From contig NC_003364.1 in the NCBI RefSeq assembly GCF_000007225.1, positions 630,001-662,000 on the forward strand: a stretch of DNA of 32,000 nt. Reading direction: 5' to 3'. Numbering within the stretch: the stretch's first letter is position 1; each line of letters begins with the position of its first letter. Below, piece after piece: positions 925 to 16,990 of this stretch. Position numbers and translations under genes: made by a program. Under the pieces are notes generated by a model. The model was not told where the DNA came from, searched no databases, and worked only from the letters and a program-made list of their open reading frames with translations. The DNA is from Pyrobaculum aerophilum str. IM2. GTDB lineage: Archaea > Thermoproteota > Thermoprotei > Thermoproteales > Thermoproteaceae.

Positions 925-954
925 GCAATGCTTTTAAGCCTGTTTTTTTGAGTC
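925..954 (+). promoter_or_regulatory. Conserved promoter/leaderless-start box, copy A (most diverged)
   Basis: GCAATGCTTTTAAGCCTGTTTTTTTGAGTC directly precedes ATG 955. It aligns to the boxes at 3657, 9474 and 12729 (AATG, TATA-like element, CC, T-run, GA, then ATG). Confidence 0.55.
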
Positions 955-3108
955 ATGGTGTCCAGCAAGGCTATAATGTTGGCGTTAATAGGGTTAGTGA
1001 TCCTCGTATTTGCAAGGGCTGGGGGAATAGCGGTGTATATTAATAGCAGCGTGGAGATCCCGCCCCTGGCGTATTACGACGGAAAGGCGCTGAGGCCAGT
1101 CCATGTGACATACGTGGGGGAGTGGGACAGGGCGTTTTGGTATGAGGCCAACGCCACTGTTAATATACCCACGTGGAGTTTTAAAAAAGCCGTAATTTAC
1201 CTACCGCGCGAAGCCCTCGGGGCTAGAGCCCCGCCTAACTTCAAGAGGGGAGTCCTCCGCGTATATATAAATAATACTGTAGTAGAGCTCGTTGAGGCAC
1301 CGCCGGAGGTAATAGCCACTTACAGCTATTTAAAGCCAGGCGAGGAGATAAAGGCTAGTAAGGCCAAAGCCACGTGGGTCAAGTCGCCAGTTGGAAGAGG
1401 GCCAGCGGAGAGGGATAAGGAGCAGAACGGGAGAGACGCTACTGACAAATTCAGCTCTGTCCTACAAGCGTTTCAAGCGTCTTCTGTTGTCTTTCCAGAC
1501 GGCGCCTTTATATACAAGCAGTTTAATGGGTTGGTTAACAGTAACAGTGAGCGGTGTTTGGAGGTTTTGAGGACTGACTCCTACAGCCCGCCAGATAATC
1601 CGACAGTGGCCTCTGTTGGTTACAACGCCACTTACGTGTGGAGGACTGCGTGGTATGTATTTACCAGTAGTCTCAGCAGCGGGGCAGTTGCGGGGAGGGG
1701 GGTAATTAAAGTGTGGGAGGTGGACCCGGCGACGCTAAATAAGAAGTATCTCTTGGGGGCGTGGTCTGTGGATTTGAGAAACGGCTACGTCACGTTCACC
1801 ACTTCAATCTCTCTGAACTGGCCCGATAAGTTCATAGGCTTAGAGCTGTGTTTCGCCCCCAGCGTCAGCGCCACGTATACAGTAGGCGCAAACGCCACTC
1901 TAGGCTTTAGGAAAAACGCCATATCAATTGCCATGGGGAGCTACTCGCTTGGGGTTGTCCCAGTAGACAGGACGCAATATGTGGGTGGCGTTGTGTATTA
2001 CCAAGTCCTTCGACCCCCCATTAGGAATATTATTTTTGGTCCATTTACTCTAGCTGACGGTTATTACGGCCAGACGCTGAACTTAGATATGACCGTATAC
2101 GTGCCGTGGAGCACATCACAATGCCCGACGCTTGTAGTGACGACATACGTGGGAGATTTAGCCCACATGCAAATCGACTCGATCTCCTTTACGGCATCTG
2201 GGTACGGCAACGGCGCGTGTAGATATGAGGTGAGGAGGACGGTCACGCTCAGCTCTTCCGCAATCGGGTTCTGGTACGACGAGGCGAGGGCTAGGGACAA
2301 GGCCGTGGTTATAAGAGTTTCGTTTAACTACAACGTCTCAGAAGTGGTAATATACAGAGTGGACATCTCGGGATACAGATTTGCAGAAAACTACATAGAT
2401 AAAAACGTTAACTCATGGCTGACCCTTGTACTCAGGGGCTACTACTCGCAGACGCTTAGAGCTTGCACTATGGCGAGGTTGCCGCAAGTGAACTATACAG
2501 TGGTCTTGGCCAATATAGAGACGTATAGCGCGGCAGCGGGAACAAGGCCCGCCGACTTCCTTGCCGTTAACGTAGGCGCTCCAAGTGGGTATAAAATACA
2601 GAGCGTGGAATTCCGCATTAGACCGTCTGCCGCATTTGCGCCTCCTGTTAATGTGTACGTCAAGGGTACGAAGTTTGAAGAGCCCTGGTGGTTGACTTGG
2701 ACGTTTAGAATTGCCCAAGCGATAAAGACGGTACTAGACTTCCTTGGCCTCATACCAGGTCCTTTGAGCTGGTTTATAGATAGAGTTTTTGATCTCCGCG
2801 GATTATTATACCCGGATTTGACTATTACGCAGACCGCTGATTATGTTGCTGTAACTTGGCGTGCTGGAGTGTACGACAGTTATTACCAAGTGGCGTTTGA
2901 AATTGGCGTGGCTAACGTAGACAGAGTGCTAGAGGCGACTAATGTATATGTCTCAAATTCTGCCTATTTGTGCATGTACGCGCCCATTTCATCACAGATG
3001 CCTAAGCTAGATACCAATGCCCCATTTGATACCCAATACCTCAGACACTGGGTATACGGCATAAGGGTTACCCGTGACATCCCGTTTATAGTAGATGCGG
3101 CTGGTTAG
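955..3108 (+). CDS. Large secreted/surface protein, paralog A of a four-member family (unknown function)
   Basis: 717-aa ORF with a signal-like N-terminal helix (AIMLALIGLVILVFARA) and many N-x-S/T sequons. It shares several blocks with the ORFs at 3688, 9505 and 12760: the N-terminal LPR..A.R.PP block (IYLPREALGARAPPNF), a charged linker (GRGPAERDKEQNGRD), the EEPWW motif ~140 aa from the C-terminus, and a C-terminal YVAVTWRAG block. No catalytic motif recognised. Confidence 0.85.
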   Translation: MVSSKAIMLALIGLVILVFARAGGIAVYINSSVEIPPLAYYDGKALRPVHVTYVGEWDRAFWYEANATVNIPTWSFKKAVIYLPREALGARAPPNFKRGVLRVYINNTVVELVEAPPEVIATYSYLKPGEEIKASKAKATWVKSPVGRGPAERDKEQNGRDATDKFSSVLQAFQASSVVFPDGAFIYKQFNGLVNSNSERCLEVLRTDSYSPPDNPTVASVGYNATYVWRTAWYVFTSSLSSGAVAGRGVIKVWEVDPATLNKKYLLGAWSVDLRNGYVTFTTSISLNWPDKFIGLELCFAPSVSATYTVGANATLGFRKNAISIAMGSYSLGVVPVDRTQYVGGVVYYQVLRPPIRNIIFGPFTLADGYYGQTLNLDMTVYVPWSTSQCPTLVVTTYVGDLAHMQIDSISFTASGYGNGACRYEVRRTVTLSSSAIGFWYDEARARDKAVVIRVSFNYNVSEVVIYRVDISGYRFAENYIDKNVNSWLTLVLRGYYSQTLRACTMARLPQVNYTVVLANIETYSAAAGTRPADFLAVNVGAPSGYKIQSVEFRIRPSAAFAPPVNVYVKGTKFEEPWWLTWTFRIAQAIKTVLDFLGLIPGPLSWFIDRVFDLRGLLYPDLTITQTADYVAVTWRAGVYDSYYQVAFEIGVANVDRVLEATNVYVSNSAYLCMYAPISSQMPKLDTNAPFDTQYLRHWVYGIRVTRDIPFIVDAAG

Positions 3109-3655
3109 AGAGCTTGGCCTAAAATATTTGGCTTTTTCCCCAGCTATCCTAGCCTTTCCCTACCTTTCCTACGGGCCGCTGGTGAGCTGGGATCCCTCTT
3201 GGGGTTTTAGGATGGGGGTTGGGCTGATGGGCCTCGGGCATTATCTATACTTAGTCATGCAAGTGGCGTACTATGCTTGTAAACTCCCGCCGAAATACAT
3301 AGCCCTTTCCACAGCGGCTTTTTTAGCATACTTCTTGTCTTTGACGCGGCCTGAGCTGGTCGTCTTGTCGCTAGTCGGGCTTATCTACTCAGCGGCTGTT
3401 GTTTTGTACTTCGGCGTGAAAGACGGAGTTTTCGCGAACTGGCTTGGGGCTATCGCGTGGCTATTCCTCTGGAACTTAATAGGAGGGGTTTTGTCAATTC
3501 CAGCGCATATTTACTTCGGCGGGGGAGACATATGGCTGTGGTGGAGGGAGCCCCCGGCAGATCCCCTCTACGCGCTGGCAGTGGGAATTGCGGGGGCCGT
3601 GGCGACGTGGGCTTTGGGTAAAATCCGCCTACTGGTTGAATTCACCTGCCGGTAG
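3095..3655 (+). CDS. Small polytopic membrane protein, partner A'
   Basis: 186-aa ORF, almost entirely hydrophobic helices (about 5). It overlaps the end of gene A by 14 nt in the +1 frame. The N-terminal GLK motif and the EPPADPLY motif are shared with partner C'. Confidence 0.75.
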   Translation: MRLVRELGLKYLAFSPAILAFPYLSYGPLVSWDPSWGFRMGVGLMGLGHYLYLVMQVAYYACKLPPKYIALSTAAFLAYFLSLTRPELVVLSLVGLIYSAAVVLYFGVKDGVFANWLGAIAWLFLWNLIGGVLSIPAHIYFGGGDIWLWWREPPADPLYALAVGIAGAVATWALGKIRLLVEFTCR

Positions 3656-3656
3656 C

Positions 3657-3687
3657 GTAATGTTTATAAAGCCGTTTTTTTTGACAT
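3657..3687 (+). promoter_or_regulatory. Conserved promoter/leaderless-start box, copy B
   Basis: GTAATGTTTATAAAGCCGTTTTTTTTGACAT directly precedes ATG 3688. It begins 2 nt after the stop codon of partner A' (3653-3655). Confidence 0.7.
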
Positions 3688-6009
3688 ATGTTGTCTAGAA
3701 GAGCGTTAATAACTGCGATGTTATTAATTGCAGTACTAAGGGCGGCGGATATTTCCAGCTACGTCTTCGTAGAGTTTAACCCGGGAGACGGCTTTCCCTA
3801 CGTTGTGATTAACTCCACAGCGGTTGAGCCAGTGCCCATAGTCTACATCATGGTAGAGAGAGATATAATAATGCAGGAAATGGCTTTAAACACCACCATG
3901 TACTTGCCCCAGGGCGTGTACCTTGCCTTACCCAGGAGGTATTTCGCGCCGCGGCCGCCGGCGCCTCCGCCGGGCGTAAGGGGGCGTGTGGTGGACATAG
4001 AGGTAGAGGGCTTGGGAGTAGCCCGGGTTGTCATCGCCAGAAACGCCACGGAGATCCCCAACGCCGTGGCTTACTATGTGTATCTAGACGCGGAGGAGAG
4101 AGGCGGGAGGTATTACTACAAAGGCAAGCCGCTGGACGTCAGAAGGCCCAAGACGCCGAGGGACCGGGCGGGCGGTAGCGCCCAGGGTAGCGAGCCCGTG
4201 GGCCAAGCGGAGCCGATGTACTACACAGAGACTAAAAGCGGCACCGCCGTAAGTAGCTGGGCGAGATACGTCTTCAACCCAGCGTCGCCAATTAACGTGA
4301 GAAACCCCCCATCTTCTAGCTACACGCCGGTGAGGTACTTCAACGCCACGGGTTACGCCAACAACGACTTTGTAATGGGCACAACTCCATGGGCCTATCT
4401 AGGCCATGGCGTCTCTGACATATATCTAGCCATCCAAGGGGGGTCGAGTAGCTCTATCCGCTACTCCCTTTGCCCCTACTCCACGCCTACTCCAACTCCC
4501 CCGGCGTCGCCCACCGCCTCCCCATGCGTGCGCAACTCCCAGACCGCGCCGAGCTTCGGCCGCTACCTATTGGCGCGTATAAGCGCGGCGCCCTATGCCA
4601 ATAGCTATTTATGGTTCTACGCAGAGATTTACAACCCACTTAACCTTCCCATCAACGCCTCTATAGCTGTGGTGTACAACAGGCCCGCCCCTTCGGACGG
4701 CTCCGTCTACTCTTTGCTAACGGCCAACTGGCTCTCCTCAGTGGGCCAGCCGGGATACACATTCGGCGCAGACTACGGCTACAGCGTGAGGGTGTCCAGA
4801 CTCCTCTTTACTGTTAGAATACCACCAGGCGCCCAGATGCCTATAAACATTGCGTTAGTAGGCCTGGCGGTATACACCTGTAGCCCCAGCTCTACACTTA
4901 CCGTAAAGATATACACGCCGGCCGACCCAAACGCCTACGTCACAGCCACGGGGCAGAAGTACACATCTGCCGAATGCGCCACATACTTCTTTAGCGACAT
5001 ATACGGAACTTTGCCGGAATCAGCCGTAGTTCCGTTACTAGCGGCGAATTCTACGGTGATACCGCTGATTATAGAGTTTAATCCCAGCCTCTATGCCAGC
5101 TACCCAAATCGAGTAACTGTGACGTTTAAATCACTATTTGCCTTCGGCCAGCGCTGGCCAGAGATATGGAGACACAACGCCAACAATTGGATAAGCAGTT
5201 CTAAGACTTACCCATACACAACATTACCTGTTAAAGTTGTTTTTAGAGATTACTTAGCATTTTCAGTGTGGTCCACTGCGTATAATTTAAAGAACGAGTC
5301 GGTATCTCCATGGACAGATCTCAACATATTAGCTTACGCCGTGTTGACTACACAAGTAGGCTCTAGCGTAGCTTACGATCCACCCTCGTTCCCTAGGGCT
5401 TCGCTACAGTACATCCCTCTCGATCAATATCTTCAACTTAAGAAGGTGTGTCTGGCGTTTGAGAGCGTAAAGGCTGGCGCGGTTGGCTCGTTGACTACCT
5501 ACGTCAGCGTTGAGGGGCAGAACCCGTGGCTTGAGGCGTTTGCCTCCATTGTTTCCGCCGTTACTAATGCAATTGGAAACACTATAACAGGTTATCAGAT
5601 AATAAGCAAGATTTTTGGACTGGCGATGCCCTCGTTTTTAGGACCCCTTGGCTACGTGGTTTGGGGGCTTGGCATATTCGCGGCGTTAGTGCCCATGTCT
5701 GGAAATATCAACTGTGCGCCGTCTTCAGACTGGCTCTCTCACGGCTACGACGCGGGTACTGGGTACATAAAGGCGGCGGGATGGAAAATAGGCACGAATG
5801 AGTTGCCGTCTTACGCCGGGGGGCTTAAGGTGAAGATCTCTATGCTGATTGACCACTCGTTTTACCACAGTGTAAAAACCGTTGCGCCGGGAAGCGGGAT
5901 ATACGTAGACTTCTTCTCCTATGCCATATTTGACTCCTCTAACTACTTCACAGGGCCGTTGGAGCCCTATGCGCTGGGCGTTGGGAGGTTCTATCTTAAA
6001 ATCCAGTAG
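3688..6009 (+). CDS. Large secreted/surface protein, paralog B (unknown function)
   Basis: 773-aa ORF with a signal-like N-terminus (LITAMLLIAVLRAA) and many sequons. It carries the LALPRRYFAPRPPAPPPG block, a charged linker (RRPKTPRDRAGG), a Pro/Thr/Ser-rich stretch (STPTPTPPASPTASP), an NPW motif followed by a long hydrophobic segment ~160 aa from the C-terminus. Confidence 0.85.
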   Translation: MLSRRALITAMLLIAVLRAADISSYVFVEFNPGDGFPYVVINSTAVEPVPIVYIMVERDIIMQEMALNTTMYLPQGVYLALPRRYFAPRPPAPPPGVRGRVVDIEVEGLGVARVVIARNATEIPNAVAYYVYLDAEERGGRYYYKGKPLDVRRPKTPRDRAGGSAQGSEPVGQAEPMYYTETKSGTAVSSWARYVFNPASPINVRNPPSSSYTPVRYFNATGYANNDFVMGTTPWAYLGHGVSDIYLAIQGGSSSSIRYSLCPYSTPTPTPPASPTASPCVRNSQTAPSFGRYLLARISAAPYANSYLWFYAEIYNPLNLPINASIAVVYNRPAPSDGSVYSLLTANWLSSVGQPGYTFGADYGYSVRVSRLLFTVRIPPGAQMPINIALVGLAVYTCSPSSTLTVKIYTPADPNAYVTATGQKYTSAECATYFFSDIYGTLPESAVVPLLAANSTVIPLIIEFNPSLYASYPNRVTVTFKSLFAFGQRWPEIWRHNANNWISSSKTYPYTTLPVKVVFRDYLAFSVWSTAYNLKNESVSPWTDLNILAYAVLTTQVGSSVAYDPPSFPRASLQYIPLDQYLQLKKVCLAFESVKAGAVGSLTTYVSVEGQNPWLEAFASIVSAVTNAIGNTITGYQIISKIFGLAMPSFLGPLGYVVWGLGIFAALVPMSGNINCAPSSDWLSHGYDAGTGYIKAAGWKIGTNELPSYAGGLKVKISMLIDHSFYHSVKTVAPGSGIYVDFFSYAIFDSSNYFTGPLEPYALGVGRFYLKIQ

Positions 6010-6517
6010 TCTTTTTTCCCTCAGCCTCCTCTTCCTCTTCTCGGCGTCACTCCTCCCCCTGGGATCTGCCCAGCTTATCCGCGCCAATGTGGCGTATACC
6101 TTCTCGGTCGTGTCGGCCGTGTGCCTCTTCGTGTCGTGCCGCCGTTATTTTTACACAGCCGCGGCGTTTGGGGCCGTTTTGTGGGGGCTGTCCTTCGCCT
6201 ACCCCCACTTCCTCGTGGCGTTTCTCTCCATGTGGCTTTACCTGGGCTGGGCTTGGCTCGGCTTGCTGTGGGCCTCTTGGAGGCTTTGGAGAGTTAAAGG
6301 CGTTGTCACCGCCTTTGCGGCGCTGTATGTGATAAACCTTATGTACATACCCCTCGAATTTGCCAATTTATTGCCCGATTGGGCGCTGGCGGCAATAGGG
6401 GACAACCCTCGCACGACCTTCCTCAACTGGGCTAGGTATTTGCTAACCTATCTCACCACCATGGCCGTGTTGCAGACAATCCGCGTCTTGGCCAAGCTCG
6501 ACCAGCGGCGCCGCTAG
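5969..6517 (+). CDS. Small polytopic membrane protein, partner B'
   Basis: The track ORF starts at 5921. I prefer ATG 5969 because it places the ILK + F/L/S-rich first helix the same distance from the N-terminus as in partner C'. It overlaps gene B by 41 nt in the +1 frame, has multiple hydrophobic helices and a basic tail (DQRRR). Confidence 0.65.
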   Translation: MRWALGGSILKSSSLFSLSLLFLFSASLLPLGSAQLIRANVAYTFSVVSAVCLFVSCRRYFYTAAAFGAVLWGLSFAYPHFLVAFLSMWLYLGWAWLGLLWASWRLWRVKGVVTAFAALYVINLMYIPLEFANLLPDWALAAIGDNPRTTFLNWARYLLTYLTTMAVLQTIRVLAKLDQRRR

Positions 6518-7401
6518 GATAGGAGGTGGCTTCCGTCGCAGTGCGCACCTGGTGTGTTCAAATCGGCGAACTCCTCCCGGCAGATGTTGAACTGGAGGCC
6601 GTGGCGCCTGGCGTATTCAGCCACAAGCGCCAGGATTCTCCTCCTGTACTCCCTCGGCGCGTACCACTGTCCGTGGAAGTACTGCCCCTCTTGGAAGTAC
6701 ATCCTCCGCCACGTGAGTGCTTTGTCTGGAAAGGCCTTTGCCAGGCGGGCAAAGTTATCTCTCTTGGCCTTATACGTACTGGCGACGAGATGTTTAGCCC
6801 CGGCCTCAGCGGCTTTTGACACCACCTCCTCAATATTGTCCACGTCGTCGTTGAGCAAGGGAATTAAGGGGTCAAGCCTCACTGCGACGGGCACTCCAGC
6901 CTCCGAAAGGCGCCTTACGGCGTCAAGCCTCCCCGCGGGCCGCGGCGCCCCAGGCTCTAATACCGACGCCAGCTCTTCTCTAAGCGTGGTGATTGTGATC
7001 TGCACCGCCACACGCCCCCTGTGTCTTTGGAAGATGTCTAAATCCCGGAGGACGAGGGGGGACTTCGTCACTATAAGCACCTTGTACCCCCTCTCCAAGA
7101 GCATTTGCAATACCCTCCGGGTCAGCCCCAGCCTCGCCTCTGGAGGGGTGTAGGGGTCGGAAGAGTTAGATAGGGACACCACGGCGCCTTTTGGAATTTT
7201 TTCCAGATCCCGCCTCACTTTATCCAATAGGTCCTCCTTGGGCCGGGGATTGAAGGCATCTGGTATATACGACGTGATGTAGCAGTAAAGACACCCGTGG
7301 CCGCAGCCGGTGTAGGGGTTGAGGCCGTATTTAAAGGGGCAGGTGCAGAGGGGGTTGCCCCAGGGGTCAAAGGGCCTGACGACGCTAAGCGATATGCGCA
7401 T
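6514..7401 (-). CDS. Radical SAM protein (SplB/COG1533-like, 'DNA repair photolyase' type)
   Basis: 295-aa ORF with a CGHGCLYC (Cx3Cx2C) cluster near the N-terminus. Length and layout fit the SplB-like radical SAM group. It starts 9 nt downstream of the ATPase gene on the same strand. Confidence 0.75.
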   Translation of the reverse strand: MRISLSVVRPFDPWGNPLCTCPFKYGLNPYTGCGHGCLYCYITSYIPDAFNPRPKEDLLDKVRRDLEKIPKGAVVSLSNSSDPYTPPEARLGLTRRVLQMLLERGYKVLIVTKSPLVLRDLDIFQRHRGRVAVQITITTLREELASVLEPGAPRPAGRLDAVRRLSEAGVPVAVRLDPLIPLLNDDVDNIEEVVSKAAEAGAKHLVASTYKAKRDNFARLAKAFPDKALTWRRMYFQEGQYFHGQWYAPREYRRRILALVAEYARRHGLQFNICREEFADLNTPGAHCDGSHLLS

Positions 7402-7410
7402 ATCGGGCGG

Positions 7411-8178
7411 CTATCTCCTCTGCCCCACCTCTATCCCCAGCTCTCTCAGCTGTTTGCTAAGCATTTTCAACATGGTCTTGACGTCTATCTCGGCCACGCG
7501 TCCGTTGACAATTTCAAAATGTATCCAGTCGTGGGCAACCTTAAGCCTCCTCGCCCTAGATATCCTCATACGCCTCACGTACAGCCCCATCTCCTCCAAG
7601 TTGGGATCCACCTCTATTTGTATAACCACGTCTGCCAAGTGGACGGATGTAGCCAACACGCCGTATACCTCCTCCACGTCTGTATGCGCAGTAGCCACGA
7701 CTATGGAGTCGGTATGCCTGGCAAAGATCTTAAAGGCGCGGAACACGTCTAGCGCAGACCCCGGGCTTCTTATCAACACTTCGTTAAGCGAGTCCACCAC
7801 GACGACGCCCCCTCTGAAATCCCCGGCGAATTCAGCCAGCTTATTCACCAAGGCGTAGGCGTCAGGCGTCTCAAGCCTGTGTCTAAACGTCGGCTTCAAC
7901 TTGGCCAGCCGCTCGCCGGGCGCGACAAATCCGTCAACAACTATTACCCGGTCCGCCGGCCCCCCGTGGCTTTTTAACTCCTCTAAAACCTCGTCTGCCA
8001 GCGCGTCAATGGCGAAGAACAAAACGGGCGCCCCTGCCCTTGCCGCCGTCGCCGCTATAGTTGAGGCGAAGAAAGTCTTCCCCACTCCGAGGAAGCCCTC
8101 AATTAGGACCACGTAGCCAGGGGGGATGCCATCGGGAATCTGCTCGTCTACTGGATCAATTCCCGTCTTAAAACCCAT
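7411..8178 (-). CDS. KaiC/RecA-superfamily ATPase (single-domain)
   Basis: 255-aa ORF with Walker A GFLGVGKT and a Walker B-like VVVVDSL. The overall pattern matches COG0467-type archaeal KaiC-like ATPases. Confidence 0.75.
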   Translation of the reverse strand: MGFKTGIDPVDEQIPDGIPPGYVVLIEGFLGVGKTFFASTIAATAARAGAPVLFFAIDALADEVLEELKSHGGPADRVIVVDGFVAPGERLAKLKPTFRHRLETPDAYALVNKLAEFAGDFRGGVVVVDSLNEVLIRSPGSALDVFRAFKIFARHTDSIVVATAHTDVEEVYGVLATSVHLADVVIQIEVDPNLEEMGLYVRRMRISRARRLKVAHDWIHFEIVNGRVAEIDVKTMLKMLSKQLRELGIEVGQRR

Positions 8179-8624
8179 GTAAAAAACGCGACGGCCTTAT
8201 TAAAAACTTCGCCTCCAATCAATAAGTATAACACTTTGCGGAGCGGGCCCCTCCGGCATCCTAACAAAGGGGCGTTTATTTTTACCTCCAAGAATGCTGT
8301 TATATACGCAAAAGAGCCGCGACAAATATTCCCAATAAACGCCGTGAAGAGATGCGGTACTCCTGACTCTTCGTTGTAGTTTACAAATCCGTGGGCGGCG
8401 GCGTTTATCACCTCGCCTGCGTCTGGTGTAAAGAGCAGAACAACACTTGTGCACCTAACAGTCTCGTCGTAAAACTCCACTATCGCCGTCAATGCGACTG
8501 TAACCAGCAGTGTGGCGATTACTACTGCTAGAGATCATAGTGTAGTGAACAATACCTATTTTTCGTTAATAACGGATTTTAAATGCTGTTGCCTAACAGA
8601 GAGGGAATAAAAATGGCACGGCCC

Positions 8625-9257
8625 CTAATAATACAGCTTTTTTAAACTCACCACGGCCTTTGTTCCATCTAGTACCGCCTCGGCGTAGTAGCCGTCTTTC
8701 AAGGGGCCTGGGTTGACGACGATCGTATCGCCGATTATGTCAATGCCTCTATCCTCGTGTATGTGGCCGTGGACGGAGAGAATCGGTTGTTTTTCCTCGA
8801 TGTATTTCTTAACCGCCAGGCTGCCAACTGGCCTTACCCCGCCCACTTTGTCTAAATGTCCCCTCGGCGGGTTGTGGACCACCAAGACGTGGGGCGTGGG
8901 CGTAAGGGAGTAGAGTAGCCCCTGGAGATCCTCTTCCGACACTCTGAACAAGTCGTTGAAGGGCGTCGGGAGGCTCCCCCCGGCGCCTCCGATCACGTAG
9001 GGGCCCAGCCTTTGAGTCCTCCCGTGGACAGGCTTAATAGAGTCCTTCTCAAACCCGGCCAGCTCCGGAGGGTCTGTATTCCCCGGCACGAAGTACACAG
9101 GGGCTATCCCGGCGAGAGCCTCCAGCGCCTCCACAGCCGCCTCAACGCTCCGCTTGTAGGTGAAGTCGCCAGCCGCTATTACCGCGTCGTAACTGCCCCG
9201 GATTAATCTCACTTGTTTAACTCCGTCGTGTACATCGGCGACTAGTAGCAGGCGCAT
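8625..9257 (-). CDS. Metallophosphoesterase (calcineurin-like, MJ0936/YfcE type)
   Basis: 210-aa ORF with the motif series DVHDG, GDF, GNTD, VHNPP and HGHIHE. Confidence 0.85.
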   Translation of the reverse strand: MRLLLVADVHDGVKQVRLIRGSYDAVIAAGDFTYKRSVEAAVEALEALAGIAPVYFVPGNTDPPELAGFEKDSIKPVHGRTQRLGPYVIGGAGGSLPTPFNDLFRVSEEDLQGLLYSLTPTPHVLVVHNPPRGHLDKVGGVRPVGSLAVKKYIEEKQPILSVHGHIHEDRGIDIIGDTIVVNPGPLKDGYYAEAVLDGTKAVVSLKKLYY

Positions 9258-9473
9258 TTGCGCTTTAAGATATTCTGTTTTAAACTTGACGGCGCTAGTT
9301 AATGCGCCTCCCTACATTTATATAACAACATGTAGAACGGCGACTAGGCAAAGCAAAAGCGACACTGGGAAGCACTCTCCAACACTCGCCAAAGTCCCCG
9401 GGCGTACCCAGACCTCACAGCCCCCTCGCTTTTTAACGCGGAAAGGACACTGAATAGGAAATACTACTATAGC

Positions 9474-9504
9474 GCAATGTTTATAAATCCGTTTTTTTTG
9501 AGGC
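9474..9504 (+). promoter_or_regulatory. Conserved promoter/leaderless-start box, copy C
   Basis: GCAATGTTTATAAATCCGTTTTTTTTGAGGC directly precedes ATG 9505. The TATA element TTTATAAA starts 25 nt upstream of the ATG. Confidence 0.7.
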
Positions 9505-11625
9505 ATGTTGCCGAGATCTCTTCTAGTAATGGCGTTGGCGGCTTGGGCTGTGTTGCTAACAGCGCAGGGACCGCCTGGGGAGCTGTTCTGCGCCTCGGCG
9601 GGGGAGCTGGGGCTTGCGGGAGAGCCGTCAACGCTTATGTTCTCAGTGTTTGAAAGGGGGTCTTGGAGGCCTGCCGCCGCATATATAGAGCCGGAGAACG
9701 TCACCTTCCTCCTCGTGCCGCTCCTCACTAGAAACGACACTGACATATCTAAAGCCGCGGTGCCGGGCAGGCTCCCGCCCCCTGTCTTGAGAAACGAGAC
9801 AGTGGTGTGTTTTGAGGCCGCCCCGGGGAGGCCTGCGGTGGATCCGCCCGCGCCAGGCCTCCTCATAGTGGCAGAGAAGAGGGTGGCTAAATACCACGTC
9901 TTCGTCGCCAGGGCAGAAGACGTGGAGAACCCCGCCAATTTTACGCTTGCTTTGCCCAATAAGGCCGAGGGGAAGAGGCCGGACAAGGTAGAACTGGCAG
10001 ACCAACGCCCGCCTCGCGGCGGCAAGAAAAAACAACAGCCAGAGGCAGAGGTGCAGTCTGTAAATAGCCTAAGCTACTGGGCCGCCTTCAAGCTGTATAA
10101 ACTGACCTCTGCCTCCCTGGCGCCAGGCGCGTGTCTATCCACTACCTTCGACGTGCCAGAGGGAACGCGGCAGGCGGCAGTGGTCTTAACAGGCGGCACA
10201 ACACCTGGGACGTATCAATACACTATAACCAACACCTTAAGTCCGTCCAACAGGTGGAGCGGCACGGTAACTGTACCCCAGGGATCTCCGCAAACTGCGG
10301 TGCAGTGGTTGCCCTCTGGCAGAGCCCAGTACTACGTAGAGATATGTAATAGAAACTCCCAAACCGCCACCGTCTACACCTCGGTGTTACTCCAAGCCCA
10401 GAACCAGCAGTATTTTAGAAACGACGTAATTAGAACTCCTAGGATCTACATCCTCACCTACTTGCCTGTATACTGTAGTAATTATGGCCTCTGTCCGAGC
10501 AACACGCATGTAATATATGAAAACTCTTACTTCGCCATTCCTGGGTTTTATGTAGACGCCGCCTCCTACATCTTCCTCGAAATATACGTAAAAGTGCCAA
10601 AAGAGGCCGCTAAGTCCGACCCAGTTACGGTGTACTGGGGAAGTATCCCTGTGGCAACTCTCTACGGCTATGACTCGGGGAACACCAAAATCTACTCAGG
10701 CAGCGTGGTGATACCAGACAGCTATTTGATGTTCCTCCTACCCACTTACGGCCTAGGAGGAGTTATCTCAATAGGCCCCTTTACCATCTACGCAAACTCT
10801 GCATATGAAGTGGAAGTAAAGGCGGCTGTGAGGAAGCCGCAGGAACTCGCCCCAGCAGGTGACGCAACAGTATACAATACGTTAGTAAGAAGATTCAGAG
10901 AGTCCTTTCTCTTCTTTAACCGGAGAGCATTTATAGCAGACATAGACTATGCAAGAGCAGGTGGGGCAAGTGGCGAGCTCGTTATAAGTACTAAGCCGGT
11001 TGTAGATATTGGCGCACCGCCATGGGCCAAGTACTCATACGTGACGTTCTACATAAGATTCTACGACGGCTCTATGAATCCGATAGAAATATCTGGAGGT
11101 AGCGCATTTGTTGTCAATACGACTTCGTGGTGGGGGAGTGCGTTGAAAAACTTGGCAATAGTTTCTGCAATTCTCCAGATTTATGATTTGATAAAGGGCA
11201 CTGTTGACGCTTTGAAGAAGGTGGCCACGGGCTTTCCAGTGATTGGATATGTGACTTTTGCCATGGACGCCATTATTAACGCCGCGGAGGCCAGTGTAAG
11301 CGTTGAAAGAGTTGATTCCTACACGTTGAAAGTCACTCTGTGGACAGGAGGATACGATAGGGATCCACTAGAGGCGAGAATATATTTTAACATACGGAGT
11401 GATCCGCAGTACGTCGCCGTTACGGGGGTTGAGTATAGTATTGGCGAATTAGGTTCTTGGATTACTGTACATAGAGTGGATAAGCCGGTTCTGCCGTACA
11501 CGTCATATGCGTATGTGGGAGGTGCCAGTAGCGTTACCTACTTCCCCTACAGGACTTTGACATGCGGCGTCCAAGAGTCTCTAGGTTATCCGTGGAATAA
11601 GTGTGACAGCGCGTATTATCGGTAG
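9505..11625 (+). CDS. Large secreted/surface protein, paralog C (unknown function)
   Basis: 706-aa ORF with a signal-like N-terminus (LLVMALAAWAVLLTA) and many sequons. It carries a VPGRLPPPV block, a charged linker (QRPPRGGKKKQQPEAE), an SWW motif followed by an amphipathic/hydrophobic segment ~165 aa from the C-terminus, and a C-terminal YTLKVTLWTGG block. Confidence 0.85.
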   Translation: MLPRSLLVMALAAWAVLLTAQGPPGELFCASAGELGLAGEPSTLMFSVFERGSWRPAAAYIEPENVTFLLVPLLTRNDTDISKAAVPGRLPPPVLRNETVVCFEAAPGRPAVDPPAPGLLIVAEKRVAKYHVFVARAEDVENPANFTLALPNKAEGKRPDKVELADQRPPRGGKKKQQPEAEVQSVNSLSYWAAFKLYKLTSASLAPGACLSTTFDVPEGTRQAAVVLTGGTTPGTYQYTITNTLSPSNRWSGTVTVPQGSPQTAVQWLPSGRAQYYVEICNRNSQTATVYTSVLLQAQNQQYFRNDVIRTPRIYILTYLPVYCSNYGLCPSNTHVIYENSYFAIPGFYVDAASYIFLEIYVKVPKEAAKSDPVTVYWGSIPVATLYGYDSGNTKIYSGSVVIPDSYLMFLLPTYGLGGVISIGPFTIYANSAYEVEVKAAVRKPQELAPAGDATVYNTLVRRFRESFLFFNRRAFIADIDYARAGGASGELVISTKPVVDIGAPPWAKYSYVTFYIRFYDGSMNPIEISGGSAFVVNTTSWWGSALKNLAIVSAILQIYDLIKGTVDALKKVATGFPVIGYVTFAMDAIINAAEASVSVERVDSYTLKVTLWTGGYDRDPLEARIYFNIRSDPQYVAVTGVEYSIGELGSWITVHRVDKPVLPYTSYAYVGGASSVTYFPYRTLTCGVQESLGYPWNKCDSAYYR

Positions 11626-12157
11626 TTTTGGGCTAAAGGCCTCTTTTTTCTTGTTTCTTTTTTCCTACTTGTTGCTGGCTGGGGTTCGCGCGGGGCTGTT
11701 TGAGTTTCCCCATTTCCTTCTGTTGGGGGCTTTGGCGTATTTAGCGGCTTATTACGTGGCTAGTGGGCGTTATCTCTTCCCCACGGCTGTTTACGGGGCT
11801 GGGCTTGGGCTTTTGGCCCTCAACAAGTTTCTGCCGCCTAGCGCCGTGTTCGGGCCTCTGCCCGTTGATTTGAGCTGGGCCACTTTCTACTTCCCCTTTG
11901 CCGCCGCGGCCCTTCTCTTGTACGCGGCCACTTTCGCCAGGGGGTTTGCGGCGAGGGCTCTCTCAGTACTTCTCCTGGCGCTGGCAGTGGCGCTGGGACA
12001 CTTCTACATGGTTTACGTGGGCTGGCTGTGGAGGGCCGTGGTGCCCTCCCTGGGGCTGGCCCCCGCCTTCCCCGAGCCCCAAGACGCGCCGCTATACATA
12101 CTGCTCTACGAGCTGTGGAGAGCTGTACACCAGCTCCCCCTCCGGCGCAAGGCTTAA
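11603..12157 (+). CDS. Small polytopic membrane protein, partner C'
   Basis: 184-aa ORF with a GTG start, overlapping gene C by 23 nt in the +1 frame. It has about 5 hydrophobic helices, the GLK and EPQDAPLY motifs, and a basic tail (RRKA). Confidence 0.7.
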   Translation: MTARIIGSFGLKASFFLFLFSYLLLAGVRAGLFEFPHFLLLGALAYLAAYYVASGRYLFPTAVYGAGLGLLALNKFLPPSAVFGPLPVDLSWATFYFPFAAAALLLYAATFARGFAARALSVLLLALAVALGHFYMVYVGWLWRAVVPSLGLAPAFPEPQDAPLYILLYELWRAVHQLPLRRKA

Positions 12158-12178
12158 TCCAAGACTCTACTGGCGTGG

Positions 12179-12330
12179 ATGCCCCCGCCTCTGGTGGCCG
12201 ATACATGCGGCGGAGTTGGGCAGGTGAGTCCTATCGGCGGCATTTACGACGCGGCAACAGCCGCCGGCGGCCAGGCAGAACGTCGAGGTTGCTGTGAAAG
12301 CGCTGGAGACACTCGCCGTGATAGCGCCGT
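12179..12330 (+). pseudogene. 5' fragment of a metallophosphoesterase gene (copy of 8625-9257, opposite orientation)
   Basis: It aligns to the first ~50 codons of the intact gene: PLVADTCGGVGQVSPIGGIYDAATAAGG vs LLVADVHDGVKQVRLIRGSYDAVIAAGD. By hand count, 55/77 nt are identical over one ungapped stretch. An internal deletion and a frame change follow (LETLAVIAPCI vs LEALAGIAPVY). It ends abruptly at ~12330. Confidence 0.8.
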
Positions 12331-12545
12331 GTATTTCAACCTACAGGCAGATTGCGTTGTCGACGATGTGGAAAACTCCCGCGGAGACGCAGGTAGGTGA
12401 TACACTTGTAAAGCTCAGATGCAAAAGCTGGAACAAAGGCGTATTTTTGAATGATGGCCGCATTAATGAGTTTGTATATAAAACTTAGTGTTTTAAACAC
12501 AAGGGTCTTTATGAAAACAGATATGTTTCCGCGGGCTTTACATCT
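12331..12545 (-). pseudogene. 5' fragment of a rhomboid protease gene (copy of 16298-, opposite orientation)
   Basis: A 26-nt run at 12427-12452 is identical to the reverse complement of 16412-16437. At protein level, INAAIIQKYAFVPAF matches LNPAVIQKYAFVPAL. Similarity continues upstream into the rhomboid promoter region (to ~12600 on the + strand). It is fused tail-to-tail to the phosphoesterase fragment. Confidence 0.8.
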
Positions 12546-12728
12546 CATAATAGCAAATCCACTGGCTAAATCTATACAAGAACCTACCACAGAGATACGG
12601 CGCTGAGGAGAGGCCGGAGCCTCGGCGCTGTCGCAACGCCCGCAGTCTCCCAAGCCAGTGCTCAACCCCTTGACGAGGGAGCCGACAGCAGTGCATACTC
12701 CAACGCCTTCGTAATCAAGTGATGATGC

Positions 12729-12759
12729 GCAATGTTTATAAATTCCGTTTGTTTGAGAT
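12729..12759 (+). promoter_or_regulatory. Conserved promoter/leaderless-start box, copy D
   Basis: GCAATGTTTATAAATTCCGTTTGTTTGAGAT directly precedes ATG 12760. The first 12 coding nt (ATGTTGCCGAGA) are identical to those of gene C. Confidence 0.7.
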
Positions 12760-14886
12760 ATGTTGCCGAGAATAGTTCTGTGGATTGCGATTGCGGCGTT
12801 TGTAATAGCTGGTTATGTTGACGTCCACGTAGAGGGCGGGCCAGACGTTGAGAGCCTGCATTTGTACGTATGGAACGGCTCCGACTGGACGCCTGTTTAT
12901 GTCATTTACCAGCCAGAGTTTATTGACACATACCTTGTCGCCACTGGCCAGTGGGTATTGATGCCCTACTACAACATGTCTAAATATGTCCTGCGCATTC
13001 CCAGGGCGGCTCTGGCGCCGCGGGGGCCTCCACAAGTCCCGCCGGGGCTAGAGCGCTGGACTCTGGAGGTGGAGAACGGGACTAGAAAAGCGGTCATAAC
13101 GCTGGCAGTGGGCAGAGACCCGCTGAGGCGCGGCAACACAACTCTGGCCACATGGAAGGCGCTTGGTCAAGAAATAGTGAAGACGCCAAACCGGGGCAAA
13201 ATTGACAGGCCGCCTAGGAGGGGGCCTCAGAACAGCCCAGATGGCGGCGATGTTGCAACCGCCAGCTACGCCGTGTCTACAGGCGCTACCGTATACCCCA
13301 TTGGAAGCCTCTATTTCAAATCGGCCTCCGTTGCTGGCACCTTCAGCACATACCTGCCCGTTGACTCGCCCACGGGCGAGACGAGGCTGTGCGGCTTGGA
13401 CAATATGCACTGGGTTGGGTTTGAAGTTCAAAACTTCACCTTAGGGATTAAGGTGGATGGATATGTCACCGGGGGCTACCTCACTCTAGAAATTTACAAC
13501 TTAGACACGTGCACCTTAATAAGCAACACGCTCTTCGCACTTCCAAATACCGGGACCTACTGGACAAATATACAGATTAGCCTCCCCCAAGACAGCCAAA
13601 TTGGCGTGAGGCTAAAGGCAAGCGGTAGCGCGGAAGTCGCGTCCATTTCAGCATATGTAGTTGCGAGGTATAAAAAGACTGTAAACAGCCTCGCCCAAAT
13701 AGCAACTTCGAAGGTTATTTCAGCCTCTGCTCCTAGAATAAGCGTAAGTGGCAGGTACAAAGTGGGAGTCCTCTACGGACCTTACGTCGCGTATGACGGC
13801 TTGGCGGGGAACTCCGCTGGTTCGAGCTACAGCAACGTATATGTTCCGCCGTCTACAGTAACGCTTACAGTGTATGGGCAGTACTGCCCGTTATTAAATG
13901 TACAGATTTATATCAACGGTATGTTATACACATCTGACCTTGTAAGCCCCGTCTCGACGACCCCTGCAGGTTATACTTGTACTTATAATGTTCCTTCGAA
14001 AACCTTACAGATATGGCCCAGGGAGTACGCAGTATCTAAGGCCACTTATTCGGGCGGGGGCATCTCAGTCACAGTGGTATATACATTTTGGGGAAGTAGC
14101 GCAACCATAAGCTTTTCCGACAGACTCCAAATAGTATATGACAGGTGGATAGAGCCGTTCCATTCGCGCTATATAGACGTCAGTACTGGATTACCCTATC
14201 TCCAGTGGGGGACTGTATTACTCTATAACACATTACAAATTTTAGGACCAGTCAACAGCTCCACTCTGAACATAGTAACGGAAATAAGGGCCAGAAACAA
14301 TGAATTGATAATATCTCTTGCGCACAACTTGCTAAATCCCATGTTTCATGTATGCGGCGCTGAGTGGGTAATAACAGCGCCTGTGGAAAGCCAGGGCATA
14401 AGTACTTATTACGACGGTTCCGCTGTTGAGGAGCCGTGGTGGGCGGCAACAGCAAAGAGAGTTTTAGATGCCATAGACTGGCTCTTGATATTTGCCCAGG
14501 GAGACAAGGGGACGTTGGCATCTCTCGCATTAAAAGTAGTATACAATGTGGTAAGCGCAGCCACTCCCCAAGTCTCTGTAACCAGTAGCAACGGAGTATA
14601 TAGAGTAACGTGGATTAGAGGCTGGGCCGATCCCATTCCATCAAACGTTGTGCTAATGTTAAGGCGTATGTCAGTTCCAGCGACTAGCCCGGCGTATGCG
14701 GAGTGGAGATATTTCAGAGACGGAGCGCCGAATATATTCGGTTGTATTCTCTCACCGTTTTACTACGTAGTAAATACCAATATGTACTTACCGCAAAGGC
14801 TTTTTAGTAGTGATGCCAGAGGGCGACTGATATGGACGTGGCGTGGGCAGACCAACTTAATATCGGAGGTGATAGTGACTGGGTAA
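12760..14886 (+). CDS. Large secreted/surface protein, paralog D (unknown function)
   Basis: 708-aa ORF with a signal-like N-terminus (IVLWIAIAAFVIAG) and many sequons. It carries the LRIPRAALAPRGPPQVPPG block, a charged linker (DRPPRRGPQNSPDGGD), the EEPWW motif ~150 aa from the C-terminus, and a C-terminal YRVTWIRGW block. Confidence 0.85.
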   Translation: MLPRIVLWIAIAAFVIAGYVDVHVEGGPDVESLHLYVWNGSDWTPVYVIYQPEFIDTYLVATGQWVLMPYYNMSKYVLRIPRAALAPRGPPQVPPGLERWTLEVENGTRKAVITLAVGRDPLRRGNTTLATWKALGQEIVKTPNRGKIDRPPRRGPQNSPDGGDVATASYAVSTGATVYPIGSLYFKSASVAGTFSTYLPVDSPTGETRLCGLDNMHWVGFEVQNFTLGIKVDGYVTGGYLTLEIYNLDTCTLISNTLFALPNTGTYWTNIQISLPQDSQIGVRLKASGSAEVASISAYVVARYKKTVNSLAQIATSKVISASAPRISVSGRYKVGVLYGPYVAYDGLAGNSAGSSYSNVYVPPSTVTLTVYGQYCPLLNVQIYINGMLYTSDLVSPVSTTPAGYTCTYNVPSKTLQIWPREYAVSKATYSGGGISVTVVYTFWGSSATISFSDRLQIVYDRWIEPFHSRYIDVSTGLPYLQWGTVLLYNTLQILGPVNSSTLNIVTEIRARNNELIISLAHNLLNPMFHVCGAEWVITAPVESQGISTYYDGSAVEEPWWAATAKRVLDAIDWLLIFAQGDKGTLASLALKVVYNVVSAATPQVSVTSSNGVYRVTWIRGWADPIPSNVVLMLRRMSVPATSPAYAEWRYFRDGAPNIFGCILSPFYYVVNTNMYLPQRLFSSDARGRLIWTWRGQTNLISEVIVTG

Positions 14887-14902
14887 AGACGCTTGCTTCC
14901 AA

Positions 14903-15397
14903 ATGATTAAAACGGCAAAAATACTGTTTTTTGTCTCTTTTTCTTTCACTCTTTTTTTGGCCTATTTAGTTAGCGATGGCATCTTTTACCCCTTCGGCGC
15001 TGGCACGTTCCTCGCCGGTTTGTACCTTACGCTAGTGGGGCTTATTTTTTTCTTCAGCGAGGTGCCGAAGATGCGCAGGCGGTTGCTGGAGGCTGTGGCA
15101 ATAATCCTCCTCTTCGCCTCGTTTCACCTGTTCCCGCCTCTTTCGCTGACGGCAATACCCGCTCTGTTTTTTATCTTGTTAATGCCAATATACCTTGGAT
15201 GGAAGCACCGTGTGTTTATAGACGTGGTGCACATAGTTTTGTGGCTGATCGCCTCGTCAGCTCTGGGATCGGCCTTGTATTGGCCTATGCCCAAGGCCTT
15301 TTGGTCCCAAGTTTTGACGGCCGGAGCCTCTTCCCTAGCCGCCCATTATTTCCTCTTAAAGGCCTACCCTCGCATAAAGAAGACACGGCGTATATAA
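14903..15397 (+). CDS. Small polytopic membrane protein, partner D'
   Basis: 164-aa ORF whose ATG lies 16 nt after the stop of gene D, again in the +1 frame relative to D. It has an F/L/S-rich first helix, about 5 hydrophobic helices and a basic tail (KKTRRI). Confidence 0.75.
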   Translation: MIKTAKILFFVSFSFTLFLAYLVSDGIFYPFGAGTFLAGLYLTLVGLIFFFSEVPKMRRRLLEAVAIILLFASFHLFPPLSLTAIPALFFILLMPIYLGWKHRVFIDVVHIVLWLIASSALGSALYWPMPKAFWSQVLTAGASSLAAHYFLLKAYPRIKKTRRI

Positions 15398-15774
15398 GTC
15401 TCTCAAATTACAGTTCTATGTCCAAAGCCGGAATTCGACAGCCTATTTTACTAAGTTTTTGCCCAATGAGGTGGCCGTCACAGCGGCTGGCCTCTGGATT
15501 ATTGACGCGGGGCGAGCAGTGCTCTATATGGAGGATAGATCTTATACTTACTCAAGAAGGCCCTGTGGATTTATGTAGTTTTAACGAGTAGCGCAAACTG
15601 CATCGAATACGCAGGCGGCGTTAAGGCGAGCGCCGTCTATGCCGTGCTCATAGGCCCTGCCATCCGAAAGGCGTAACTAATGGCGTGGCTTACCTACGAC
15701 AAATAACTCAATGCGTATTCTGACGGACATGTAAATACTCGGTTCTCCGCGGGCTTTGGATTCTGGCCTTAGGG

Positions 15775-16212
15775 GCTGTATTTGGGTTAAAGACTTTATC
15801 CACCCGTATCTGGCTGTGGGTTCTTCCAGAGGTTTTTTGAGCCGCCCATTTTCTCCTCGTGGGGACTTTGGCGCGATTAGCGGCTTGTTTTACGGCCTGC
15901 GGGCGCTATCTCATCTCGTCGTGATGCGCGGGGCTTTCTCGCCCTCGACAAGGCCCTCTCCCTAAGCGCAGTGTTAGGGCTATTGCCCGGAGACGCGGGC
16001 TGGACCGCTTTTCTAACTCCCCTCTGCCGCGTCGCTCTTATACGCAACTGTTTGCCGTGGGTGATTTGGGGCTAGAGCTCTCAGTTTTTATCACTGGCGT
16101 TTGCAGTGGCGCTGGGGTACTTCTTAGATCTTCGCTGGATATCTGCGGAGAGCCCTCGCACCTTCCCATGTCCTCGTCCCGGCCTTTCCAAGATGCGCGG
16201 CGGCGTGATTAA
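15775..16212 (+). pseudogene. Decayed fifth copy of the membrane-partner gene (closest to partner C')
   Basis: Nucleotide-level collinearity with 11621-12157. For example, GCTGTATTTGGGTTAAAGAC matches GGTAGTTTTGGGCTAAAGGC, and 16103-16116 is a 14-nt run identical to 11984-11997. The reading frame is broken by stops (first at 15966-15968) and by internal deletions near the 3' end. No cognate large gene lies upstream. Confidence 0.7.
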
Positions 16213-16297: not shown

Positions 16298-16990
16298 GTG
16301 GCTCTGCCGTTGCGAGATATAAATCCTACAATGACGTTTCCGTTTGTCACAAAGGCGTTGGTGTTTATAAACGTTGCCGTGTTTATCTACGAGCTTCTTA
16401 ACCCCGCCGTTATTCAAAAATACGCCTTTGTTCCAGCCCTGGCATTTTCAGAGCCTTACAGATGGGTTACGCACATGTTCCTCCACGGGGGACTTCTGCA
16501 CATAGTTGGTAATATGATCTACCTGTGGGTCTTCGGCGACAATGTGGAGGATCACTACGGACACTTCCGTTTTCTAGCGCTTTATCTCATGTGGGGGTTG
16601 GCCGCCGCCTTTGTTCACTACTGGGCTGTGGCTAGCCAAGCGGCATTGCTATCCGCAGTGGGCGTTGTGGGAGATCCCATGTGGGTGCCTGCCGTAGGCG
16701 CCTCGGGGGCTATAAGCGGGGTGCTCGGCGCCTATATGGTGCTCTATCCACACGCGCGGATTTTAACCCTTACTTTTTTCATAGTGATAACGCTGGTGGA
16801 AATACCTGCTTGGGCTTACATAGGATTTTGGTTTATTTACCAGCTCTTTTACGGCGCATTGGAGTTCATCACGTTGCAGTCAAGCGGCGTGGCGTACTTC
16901 GCCCACATAGGAGGGTTCATTGCGGGGGCTCTGACCGCGTTAATATATAGAAGGAGGCGTGCTGTGCATTACTACTGGTATTGGCAGTAA
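16298..16990 (+). CDS. Rhomboid-family intramembrane serine protease
   Basis: 230-aa polytopic ORF (GTG start) with the catalytic GASGAISG (GxSG) motif, the downstream HIGGFIAG histidine, and HMFLHGGLLHIVGN. A TATA element at 16274-16281 lies ~20 nt upstream of the start. Confidence 0.9.
   Translation: MALPLRDINPTMTFPFVTKALVFINVAVFIYELLNPAVIQKYAFVPALAFSEPYRWVTHMFLHGGLLHIVGNMIYLWVFGDNVEDHYGHFRFLALYLMWGLAAAFVHYWAVASQAALLSAVGVVGDPMWVPAVGASGAISGVLGAYMVLYPHARILTLTFFIVITLVEIPAWAYIGFWFIYQLFYGALEFITLQSSGVAYFAHIGGFIAGALTALIYRRRRAVHYYWYWQ

Follow-up and report, generated by a model that had tools for sequence, protein, structure and literature searches.

The four modules of the array

We analyzed a stretch of 32,000 nucleotides (nt) from the genome of the archaeon Pyrobaculum aerophilum IM2 (contig NC_003364.1, positions 630,001 to 662,000), which we call the window. 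It carries an array of four two-gene modules. In each, a gene for a large, apparently exported protein (A, B, C or D) is followed by a gene for a small, polytopic membrane protein, which we call its partner (A′, B′, C′ or D′). The original prediction, made from the sequence alone, had placed the four pairs on the plus strand at the coordinates below. The open reading frames (ORFs) are confirmed, and all eight proteins exactly match IM2 records. Lengths are in amino acids (aa), and the quoted labels are those of the genome annotation.

955 to 3108, + strand: large protein A, 717 aa, AAL63242, “P. aerophilum family 66”
3095 to 3655, + strand: partner A′, 186 aa, about six transmembrane (TM) helices, “family 79”, overlapping A by 14 nt
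3688 to 6009, + strand: large protein B, 773 aa, AAL63244, “family 68”
5969 to 6517, + strand: partner B′, 182 aa, “family 70”, overlapping B by 41 nt; the RefSeq product WP_128621429 is exactly B′, starting at 5969
9505 to 11625, + strand: large protein C, 706 aa, AAL63250, “family 59”
11603 to 12157, + strand: partner C′, 184 aa, “family 3”, overlapping C by 23 nt
12760 to 14886, + strand: large protein D, 708 aa, AAL63252, “family 66”
14903 to 15397, + strand: partner D′, 164 aa, about six TM helices, “family 79”, following D after a 16-nt gap

The family labels were assigned automatically in 2002, and they carry no function. They already group A with D and A′ with D′, so that the paralogy of these proteins is implicit in the genome annotation since that year, but they assign each of B, C, B′ and C′ to a family of its own, and they record neither the pairing, nor the shared promoter, nor the strain variation described below. 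We found no publication naming these proteins in the literature searched, in which the module structure, shared promoter, predicted architecture and strain-level turnover appear to be undescribed.

Pairing of the two genes

We collected 91 loci from genomes and metagenomes (an initial genome scan alone gave 3), and these contain 80 homologues of the large proteins. An ORF of partner size lies directly 3′ of the large gene, on the same strand, in 68 of the 80, and the commonest overlap is 1-4 nt. Eleven of the 12 homologues with no downstream partner have at most 430 nt of contig remaining on their 3′ side. The association of the two genes is far beyond chance, and the two-gene module that had been proposed stands. 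Forty or so paired sequences were recovered.

The array does not hold all of the pairs. Three others occur elsewhere in P. aerophilum-like genomes (710 and 161 aa, 795 and 185 aa, and 737 and 176 aa for large protein and partner). With the four described here, there are therefore at least seven pairs per genome, and further pairs are present in other species. Pairs outside the array sit singly among housekeeping genes, for example those of tRNA synthetases and ribosomal proteins.

No third conserved gene occurs beside the pairs across the loci examined. We considered the rhomboid protease gene that flanks the array as a component of the module and rejected it: in a distant species the rhomboid gene lies beside a radical S-adenosylmethionine (SAM) gene, apart from the single D pair, and there is no rhomboid gene near the other pairs.

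A shared promoter and operon structure

Nearly the same 30-45 nt precede all four large genes, namely (g)caATGTTTATAAAnCCGTTTTTTTTGAGnc, then ATG TTG. The resulting motif, ATGTTTATAAAnCCGT8GAGnc-ATG-TTG, has the following copies in the window.

931 to 954, + strand: promoter of A, a diverged copy of the motif with the TATA-like CTTTTAAG, a T-run and GAGTC immediately before the ATG
3660 to 3687, + strand: promoter of B, ATGTTTATAAAGCCGTTTTTTTTGACAT, 2 mismatches to the motif, with 0 matches expected by chance
9477 to 9504, + strand: promoter of C, ATGTTTATAAATCCGTTTTTTTTGAGGC, an exact match to the motif
12732 to 12759, + strand: promoter of D, ATGTTTATAAATTCCGTTTGTTTGAGAT

The TATA box lies approximately 18-25 nt upstream of the start codon, and such a spacing in archaeal promoters suggests leaderless transcripts. 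By chance alone, the window should contain no match to the strict pattern. A relaxed pattern has 30 matches in the 0.67 Mb of loci that we fetched, and 29 of these are at the starts of large genes. The motif also recurs upstream of homologues from all three families of large proteins, in several species.

No such element precedes the partner gene at any of the four pairs. Given this, and given that the partner genes overlap the large genes (by 14, 41 and 23 nt) or follow after only 16 nt, each pair looks like a single operon.

The 32-nt gap between A′ and B (3656-3687) is almost wholly occupied by the promoter of B. The T8 run in this promoter may double as a terminator for the A-A′ transcript.

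Relationships among the four modules

The original prediction regarded the four modules as paralogous, and this holds in part. The sequence comparisons make A and D clear homologues (BLASTP E 2e-14 across 674 residues), as well as A′ and D′ (HHalign comparison of the two families, 96%, E 2e-9). The N-terminal domain of B and C is also shared with A and D. For B the match to A/D is limited to about 165 N-terminal columns (HHalign 94%, E 9e-8), and for C it is limited to 116 (HHalign 70%, E 4e-5). Only profile-profile comparison linked them; when the A/D profile was compared to single sequences, B scored 4 bits and C approximately 0. Beyond these matches, B and C are not significantly similar in profile comparison, and neither B′ nor C′ significantly matches any other partner family (best probability 10.7%), with the B′ and C′ profiles being thin (3-6 sequences).

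Nevertheless, we favor common descent of all four pairs, because C and D share a predicted architecture, the sub-threshold profile hits among the large proteins are collinear and the promoter is shared.

Predicted structure of the large proteins

Each large protein begins with a hydrophobic helix resembling a Sec leader, as had been noted, and A through D have no C-terminal hydrophobic segment that could be an anchor. The AlphaFold2 models of D (mean predicted local distance difference test, pLDDT, 84; predicted template modeling score, pTM, 0.82) and C (pLDDT 74, pTM 0.72) have the same parts in the same order: leader helix, N-terminal beta domain, disordered basic and proline-containing linker, large beta body, helical hairpin and C-terminal beta domain. 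In both models, the hairpin starts at a PWW or SWW motif. The hairpin ranges from amphipathic to hydrophobic, and in B residues 650-668 score as a TM segment. We found no internal repeats in the large proteins.

A few motifs, such as FGPYxAYDG, DRWIEPF and IWTWRGQ, are strongly conserved. The density of N-glycosylation sequons is 7-10 per 1000 aa in the large proteins versus 0-3.6 in their cytoplasmic neighbors. Some sequons are conserved across the D family, as are some cysteine pairs, and both speak for an extracellular location.

Topology of the partners

The partners are almost entirely hydrophobic and have a basic C-terminal tail, in agreement with the earlier description, which counted about five helices. 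A crude hydropathy scan under-calls helices that are rich in aromatic residues or glycine, and we therefore read the topology by hand. With the positive-inside rule, this reading gives six helices instead of five. Both ends would be cytoplasmic, judging from the basic loops and tail. The partners have no ectodomain. Of their outer loops, the one that connects helices 5 and 6 is the longest; in A′ and C′, it contains the EPxDxPLY-type motif that these two partners had been said to share. In the C′ family, this loop is conserved as FPEPQDxPLY.

The motif G(V/I)(K/R)xG(V/L)F occurs after helix 4 in A′ and D′ but after helix 1 in C′. This shift could be a hint that the partners contain an internal repeat or are permuted.

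Searches for relatives

The sequence searches detected no relatives of either component beyond Pyrobaculum and Thermoproteus. The eight proteins and profiles of the three large-protein families have no match in Pfam, in NCBIfam or among sequences in the PDB. PADLOC yielded no match at E <= 0.1, PHROGs yielded nothing better than a single match with E 0.044, and there was no match in IMG/VR viral contigs or, by tblastn, in deposited phage and virus genomes. The proposal that the modules belong to no characterized family and have no catalytic motif is supported by these results.

Hits with named organisms come from Pyrobaculum or from a Thermoproteus metagenome-assembled genome (MAG), except for a handful of near-identical entries in MAGs that carry the labels Thermofilaceae or Desulfurococcaceae. 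Among 1.84 billion proteins, only 10 represent the A′ family. The suggestion that the modules are lineage-specific is therefore upheld.

In whole-chain Foldseek searches of the PDB, the models matched only generic multi-beta-sandwich or jelly-roll folds, with template modeling scores (TM-scores) of at most 0.29. The lists for D and C overlap, and their common entries include PorU, BcsB, peptidylglycine monooxygenase, birnavirus VP2 and Cry1A. Matches in BFVD were to jelly rolls of the capsid or tail type and had TM-scores of at most 0.28.

Strain variation and rearrangement

Related strains differ at the array in which modules they carry and in the sequences of these modules. In the strain represented by locus L012 (L012:5972-11499 versus 9480-15372 of the window), the flanks are 97-98% identical to those of P. 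aerophilum IM2, but identity drops to 73% for C-C′ and to 70% for D-D′, and each of the two pairs has the opposite orientation with respect to the flanks. At 83% identity, the metallophosphoesterase gene beside the pairs also falls below the flanks. In a near-identical strain (locus L011), C-C′ is absent, and the junction is in the repeat formed by the promoter and first codons (L011:1890-2010 versus 9429-9549 and 12684-12804 of the window): the promoter and first four codons of C are joined to the coding sequence of D. The aligned sequences indicate that this loss of C-C′ is a crossover inside the conserved promoter repeat. One more distant species has only a D pair at this locus.

We calculated median ratios of nonsynonymous to synonymous substitution rates (dN/dS) for the D clade. 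The N-terminal domain has a median of 0.29, the body 0.59, the hairpin together with the C-terminal domain 0.77 and the partner 0.28. Together with the divergent C and D alleles inside nearly identical flanks, these ratios bear out the earlier view that the modules are diversifying. The identities of large proteins and of their partners are correlated (r = 0.92).

Three decayed gene copies lie in or beside the array.

15790 to 16193 (approximate), + strand: C′-type partner pseudogene, matched by the C′ profile in three successive frames (E 6e-10, 1e-8 and 7e-7), with in-frame stops and no large gene upstream
12191 to 12332, + strand: frameshifted relic of the 5′ end of a metallophosphoesterase gene, matched by tblastn to residues 5-54 of the protein encoded at 8625-9257, with a match at the DNA level also
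12366 to 12509, − strand: relic of the 5′ end of a rhomboid gene, 54% identical to residues 19-68 of the rhomboid encoded at 16298-16990

The first of these is the decayed fifth partner of the original prediction, and it is frameshifted. The other two are in the spacer between C′ and D, where they reproduce the gene junctions of the strain with locus L012. The array therefore probably arose by duplication or inversion of a D-D′-C-C′ block along with the ends of the flanking genes.

The genes around the modules are as previously described: a truncated TnpB-like gene on the left, the rhomboid gene on the right and a minus-strand block between modules. This block encodes a radical SAM protein, a KaiC-like ATPase and the metallophosphoesterase. 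Genes for leucyl-tRNA synthetase and reverse gyrase are farther to the right of the array. The TnpB-like ORF (56-787 of the window) encodes only 243 aa, and its match is limited to the C-terminal zinc-ribbon (TNB) domain (E 2e-6). Most likely, this ORF is what remains of a transposon gene and does not belong to the modules.

Comparison with known surface proteins

The pairing had been likened to the slaAB operons of Sulfolobales, which encode surface layer (S-layer) proteins. SlaA is likewise a large, secreted, beta-rich protein, and the membrane protein encoded beside it is presumed to attach it to the cell surface. SlaB has one TM helix and a long ectodomain stalk, whereas each partner here spans the membrane about six times and lacks an ectodomain. 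Moreover, SlaA and SlaB exhibit no sequence or fold similarity to the modules, no S-layer protein is among the PDB matches from Foldseek and the modules, unlike SlaA and SlaB, occur as at least seven divergent copies per genome.

The S-layer of Pyrobaculum has been determined by cryo-electron microscopy and mass spectrometry to consist of a single immunoglobulin (Ig)-rich protein, PySLP, of 2,667 residues (bioRxiv 10.64898/2026.08.21.746120). It has 19 Ig-like domains and its own C-terminal anchor, a TM helix with a basic tail ending in lysine. PySLP is secreted and contains cysteines, and its exposed face diverges faster than the side facing the membrane (bioRxiv 10.64898/2026.08.21.746120). 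PySLP thus resembles the modules in the group of organisms, in cysteines and in the secretion and faster divergence of exposed parts that we propose for them. By contrast, it is a single chain with its own anchor, while the large proteins of the modules have only about 700-770 residues and end without an anchor, and their partners are encoded by separate genes. Given that the Pyrobaculum S-layer is this different protein, the slaAB analogy fails.

Attachment through an archaeosortase also finds no counterpart in the modules: none of the eight proteins matches an archaeosortase or PGF-CTERM model in NCBIfam or Pfam, and there is no C-terminal TM signal.

A possible role at the cell surface

The leaders of the large proteins and the integral-membrane nature of the partners make a location in the cell envelope plausible. 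The explanation that we favor, at somewhat less than even confidence, is that the large protein is exported, is probably glycosylated and disulfide-bonded, and stays attached to the membrane through its six-helix partner, while its exposed body and C-terminal domain diversify under pressure from outside the cell. Under this model, one family-specific promoter would drive each two-gene operon. The large protein, having no membrane anchor of its own, would be exported by the Sec pathway and would fold into an N-terminal beta domain, a flexible linker rich in basic residues and proline, a body of multiple beta sandwiches, an amphipathic hairpin from the PWW/SWW motif and a C-terminal beta domain. 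The partner, with both ends in the cytoplasm, would hold it at the outer face of the membrane. The body and C-terminal domain would be exposed and would diversify quickly, and recombination, partly in the conserved promoter repeat, would gain, lose, invert and replace whole cassettes. The data establish the genes and their pairing, a common promoter, the architecture as predicted, paralogy in part, variation among strains and a gradient in dN/dS; we infer export, glycosylation, surface exposure and the biological role, as well as the contact between the two proteins.

The most likely sites of contact with the partner would be the helical hairpin, the N-terminal domain or both. In one clade of 29 pairs, partner distances track those of the N-terminal domain (Mantel rho 0.38) and the hairpin (rho 0.34; p approximately 5e-4 for both). 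They do not track distances of the C-terminal domain, even though it is encoded nearest to the partner gene (rho 0.06, p 0.22). This co-divergence is weak evidence, because the sequences, which come from metagenomes, are not independent; the single clade also weighs against relying on it.

Several further points count against our explanation. The proposed contact of large protein and partner could involve only a small surface, since the outer loops of the partners have at most about 25 residues. Cleavage of the signal peptides was judged by eye. Each large protein has 5-7 sequons, which is not above the expectation from its own composition (z 0.4-1.3), and the original description of these proteins as sequon-rich was thus overstated. 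P. oguniense has versions of A and B with more than 90% identity to those of P. aerophilum, and therefore not every module is hypervariable. Finally, homology of B′ and C′ to A′ and D′ is not demonstrable by profile comparison, so a single mechanism for all four pairs is an extrapolation.

Rapid diversification and turnover of cassettes suggest pressure from viruses or neighboring cells. A bolder proposal, which we regard as doubtful, is that in Pyrobaculum and Thermoproteus the modules make up a polymorphic system at the cell surface, in which viruses or neighboring cells exert diversifying selection on the exposed parts, and these serve as receptors, decoys or markers of self and non-self. 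The promoter and first codons would be a recombination handle by which cassettes are deleted, inverted and swapped. If this is true, the system resembles the variation of surface antigens in bacteria, but is built from proteins without known relatives. Beyond the S-layer, the envelope of Thermoproteales is poorly characterized, as are the receptors of their viruses. An abundant family restricted to Pyrobaculum and Thermoproteus, with at least seven pairs per genome, a shared and strong-looking promoter and strain-level turnover is a concrete candidate for a role in virus-host or cell-cell interaction.

Alternative explanations

The large protein could instead be a secreted toxin (an archaeocin) that is released and attacks membranes of competitors via its hairpin, with the polytopic partner conferring immunity on the producer. 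A parallel is pore-forming colicins, which are plasmid-borne at loci that vary between strains, contain a helical hairpin in a ten-helix bundle and have a small multi-pass immunity protein encoded adjacently. The modules share with them the hairpin in an exported protein, the gene order with an adjacent small multi-pass membrane protein and the strain-variable loci, where presence, absence and replacement of alleles occur between near-identical strains. The orphan partner remnant would also fit a toxin with an immunity protein, as would the variability of the large protein, which is highest in the C-terminal third. However, conservation is far greater in the partner than in the variable region (dN/dS 0.28 versus 0.77), and the orphan partner has decayed instead of being retained; for these reasons the toxin-immunity explanation fits less well. 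In addition, the models are mainly beta with one hairpin instead of a ten-helix bundle, there is no toxin or pore-forming domain in Pfam (including no colicin match) or NCBIfam, the fold matches are generic with low TM-scores and some sequons are conserved. The genes, unlike those of colicins, are chromosomal and in many copies, with at least seven pairs per genome among housekeeping genes and unlinked to mobile elements. We consider this explanation unlikely.

It is also quite unlikely, in our view, that the large protein binds or acts upon an insoluble extracellular substrate, such as a mineral, sulfur or a polymer, with the partner used for docking or transfer. Carbohydrate-active, glycan-binding and collagen-binding proteins are among the generic, low-scoring fold matches, and the few strongly conserved motifs mentioned above also count in its favor. 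However, we saw no cofactor or catalytic motif and no match in Pfam, NCBIfam or PDB sequences, and dN/dS values of 0.6-0.8 with 70% identical alleles inside one population are unusual for enzymes. We regard enzymatic or binding roles, as well as a viral origin, as less likely than either our favored model or a toxin with an immunity protein.

That the genes are remnants of an enveloped archaeal virus, or were domesticated from one as a glycoprotein and a small membrane protein, is highly improbable and is rejected for now: the capsid- and tail-type jelly rolls matched in BFVD and the truncated TnpB-like gene adjoining the array would be compatible with it, but the BFVD scores are low, the searches of IMG/VR, PHROGs and phage or virus genomes gave no match and pairs sit singly among housekeeping genes.

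Atypical pairs

Two unusual arrangements were seen among the pairs outside the array. Two P. aerophilum assemblies encode an identical 710-aa large protein (L005:10897-11381 versus L004:12133-12618). The partner called in one of them has 119 aa and starts 124 nt 3′ of the large gene, while that in the other has 161 aa and overlaps the large gene. The partner of the 710-aa protein may thus be disrupted in one strain. Additionally, in an ORF of 238 aa (P0274), an A-type N-terminal domain and linker run straight into a segment from the middle of a partner (PGLVVLALVG). This ORF is either a natural A-A′ fusion that arose by deletion or an assembly artefact.

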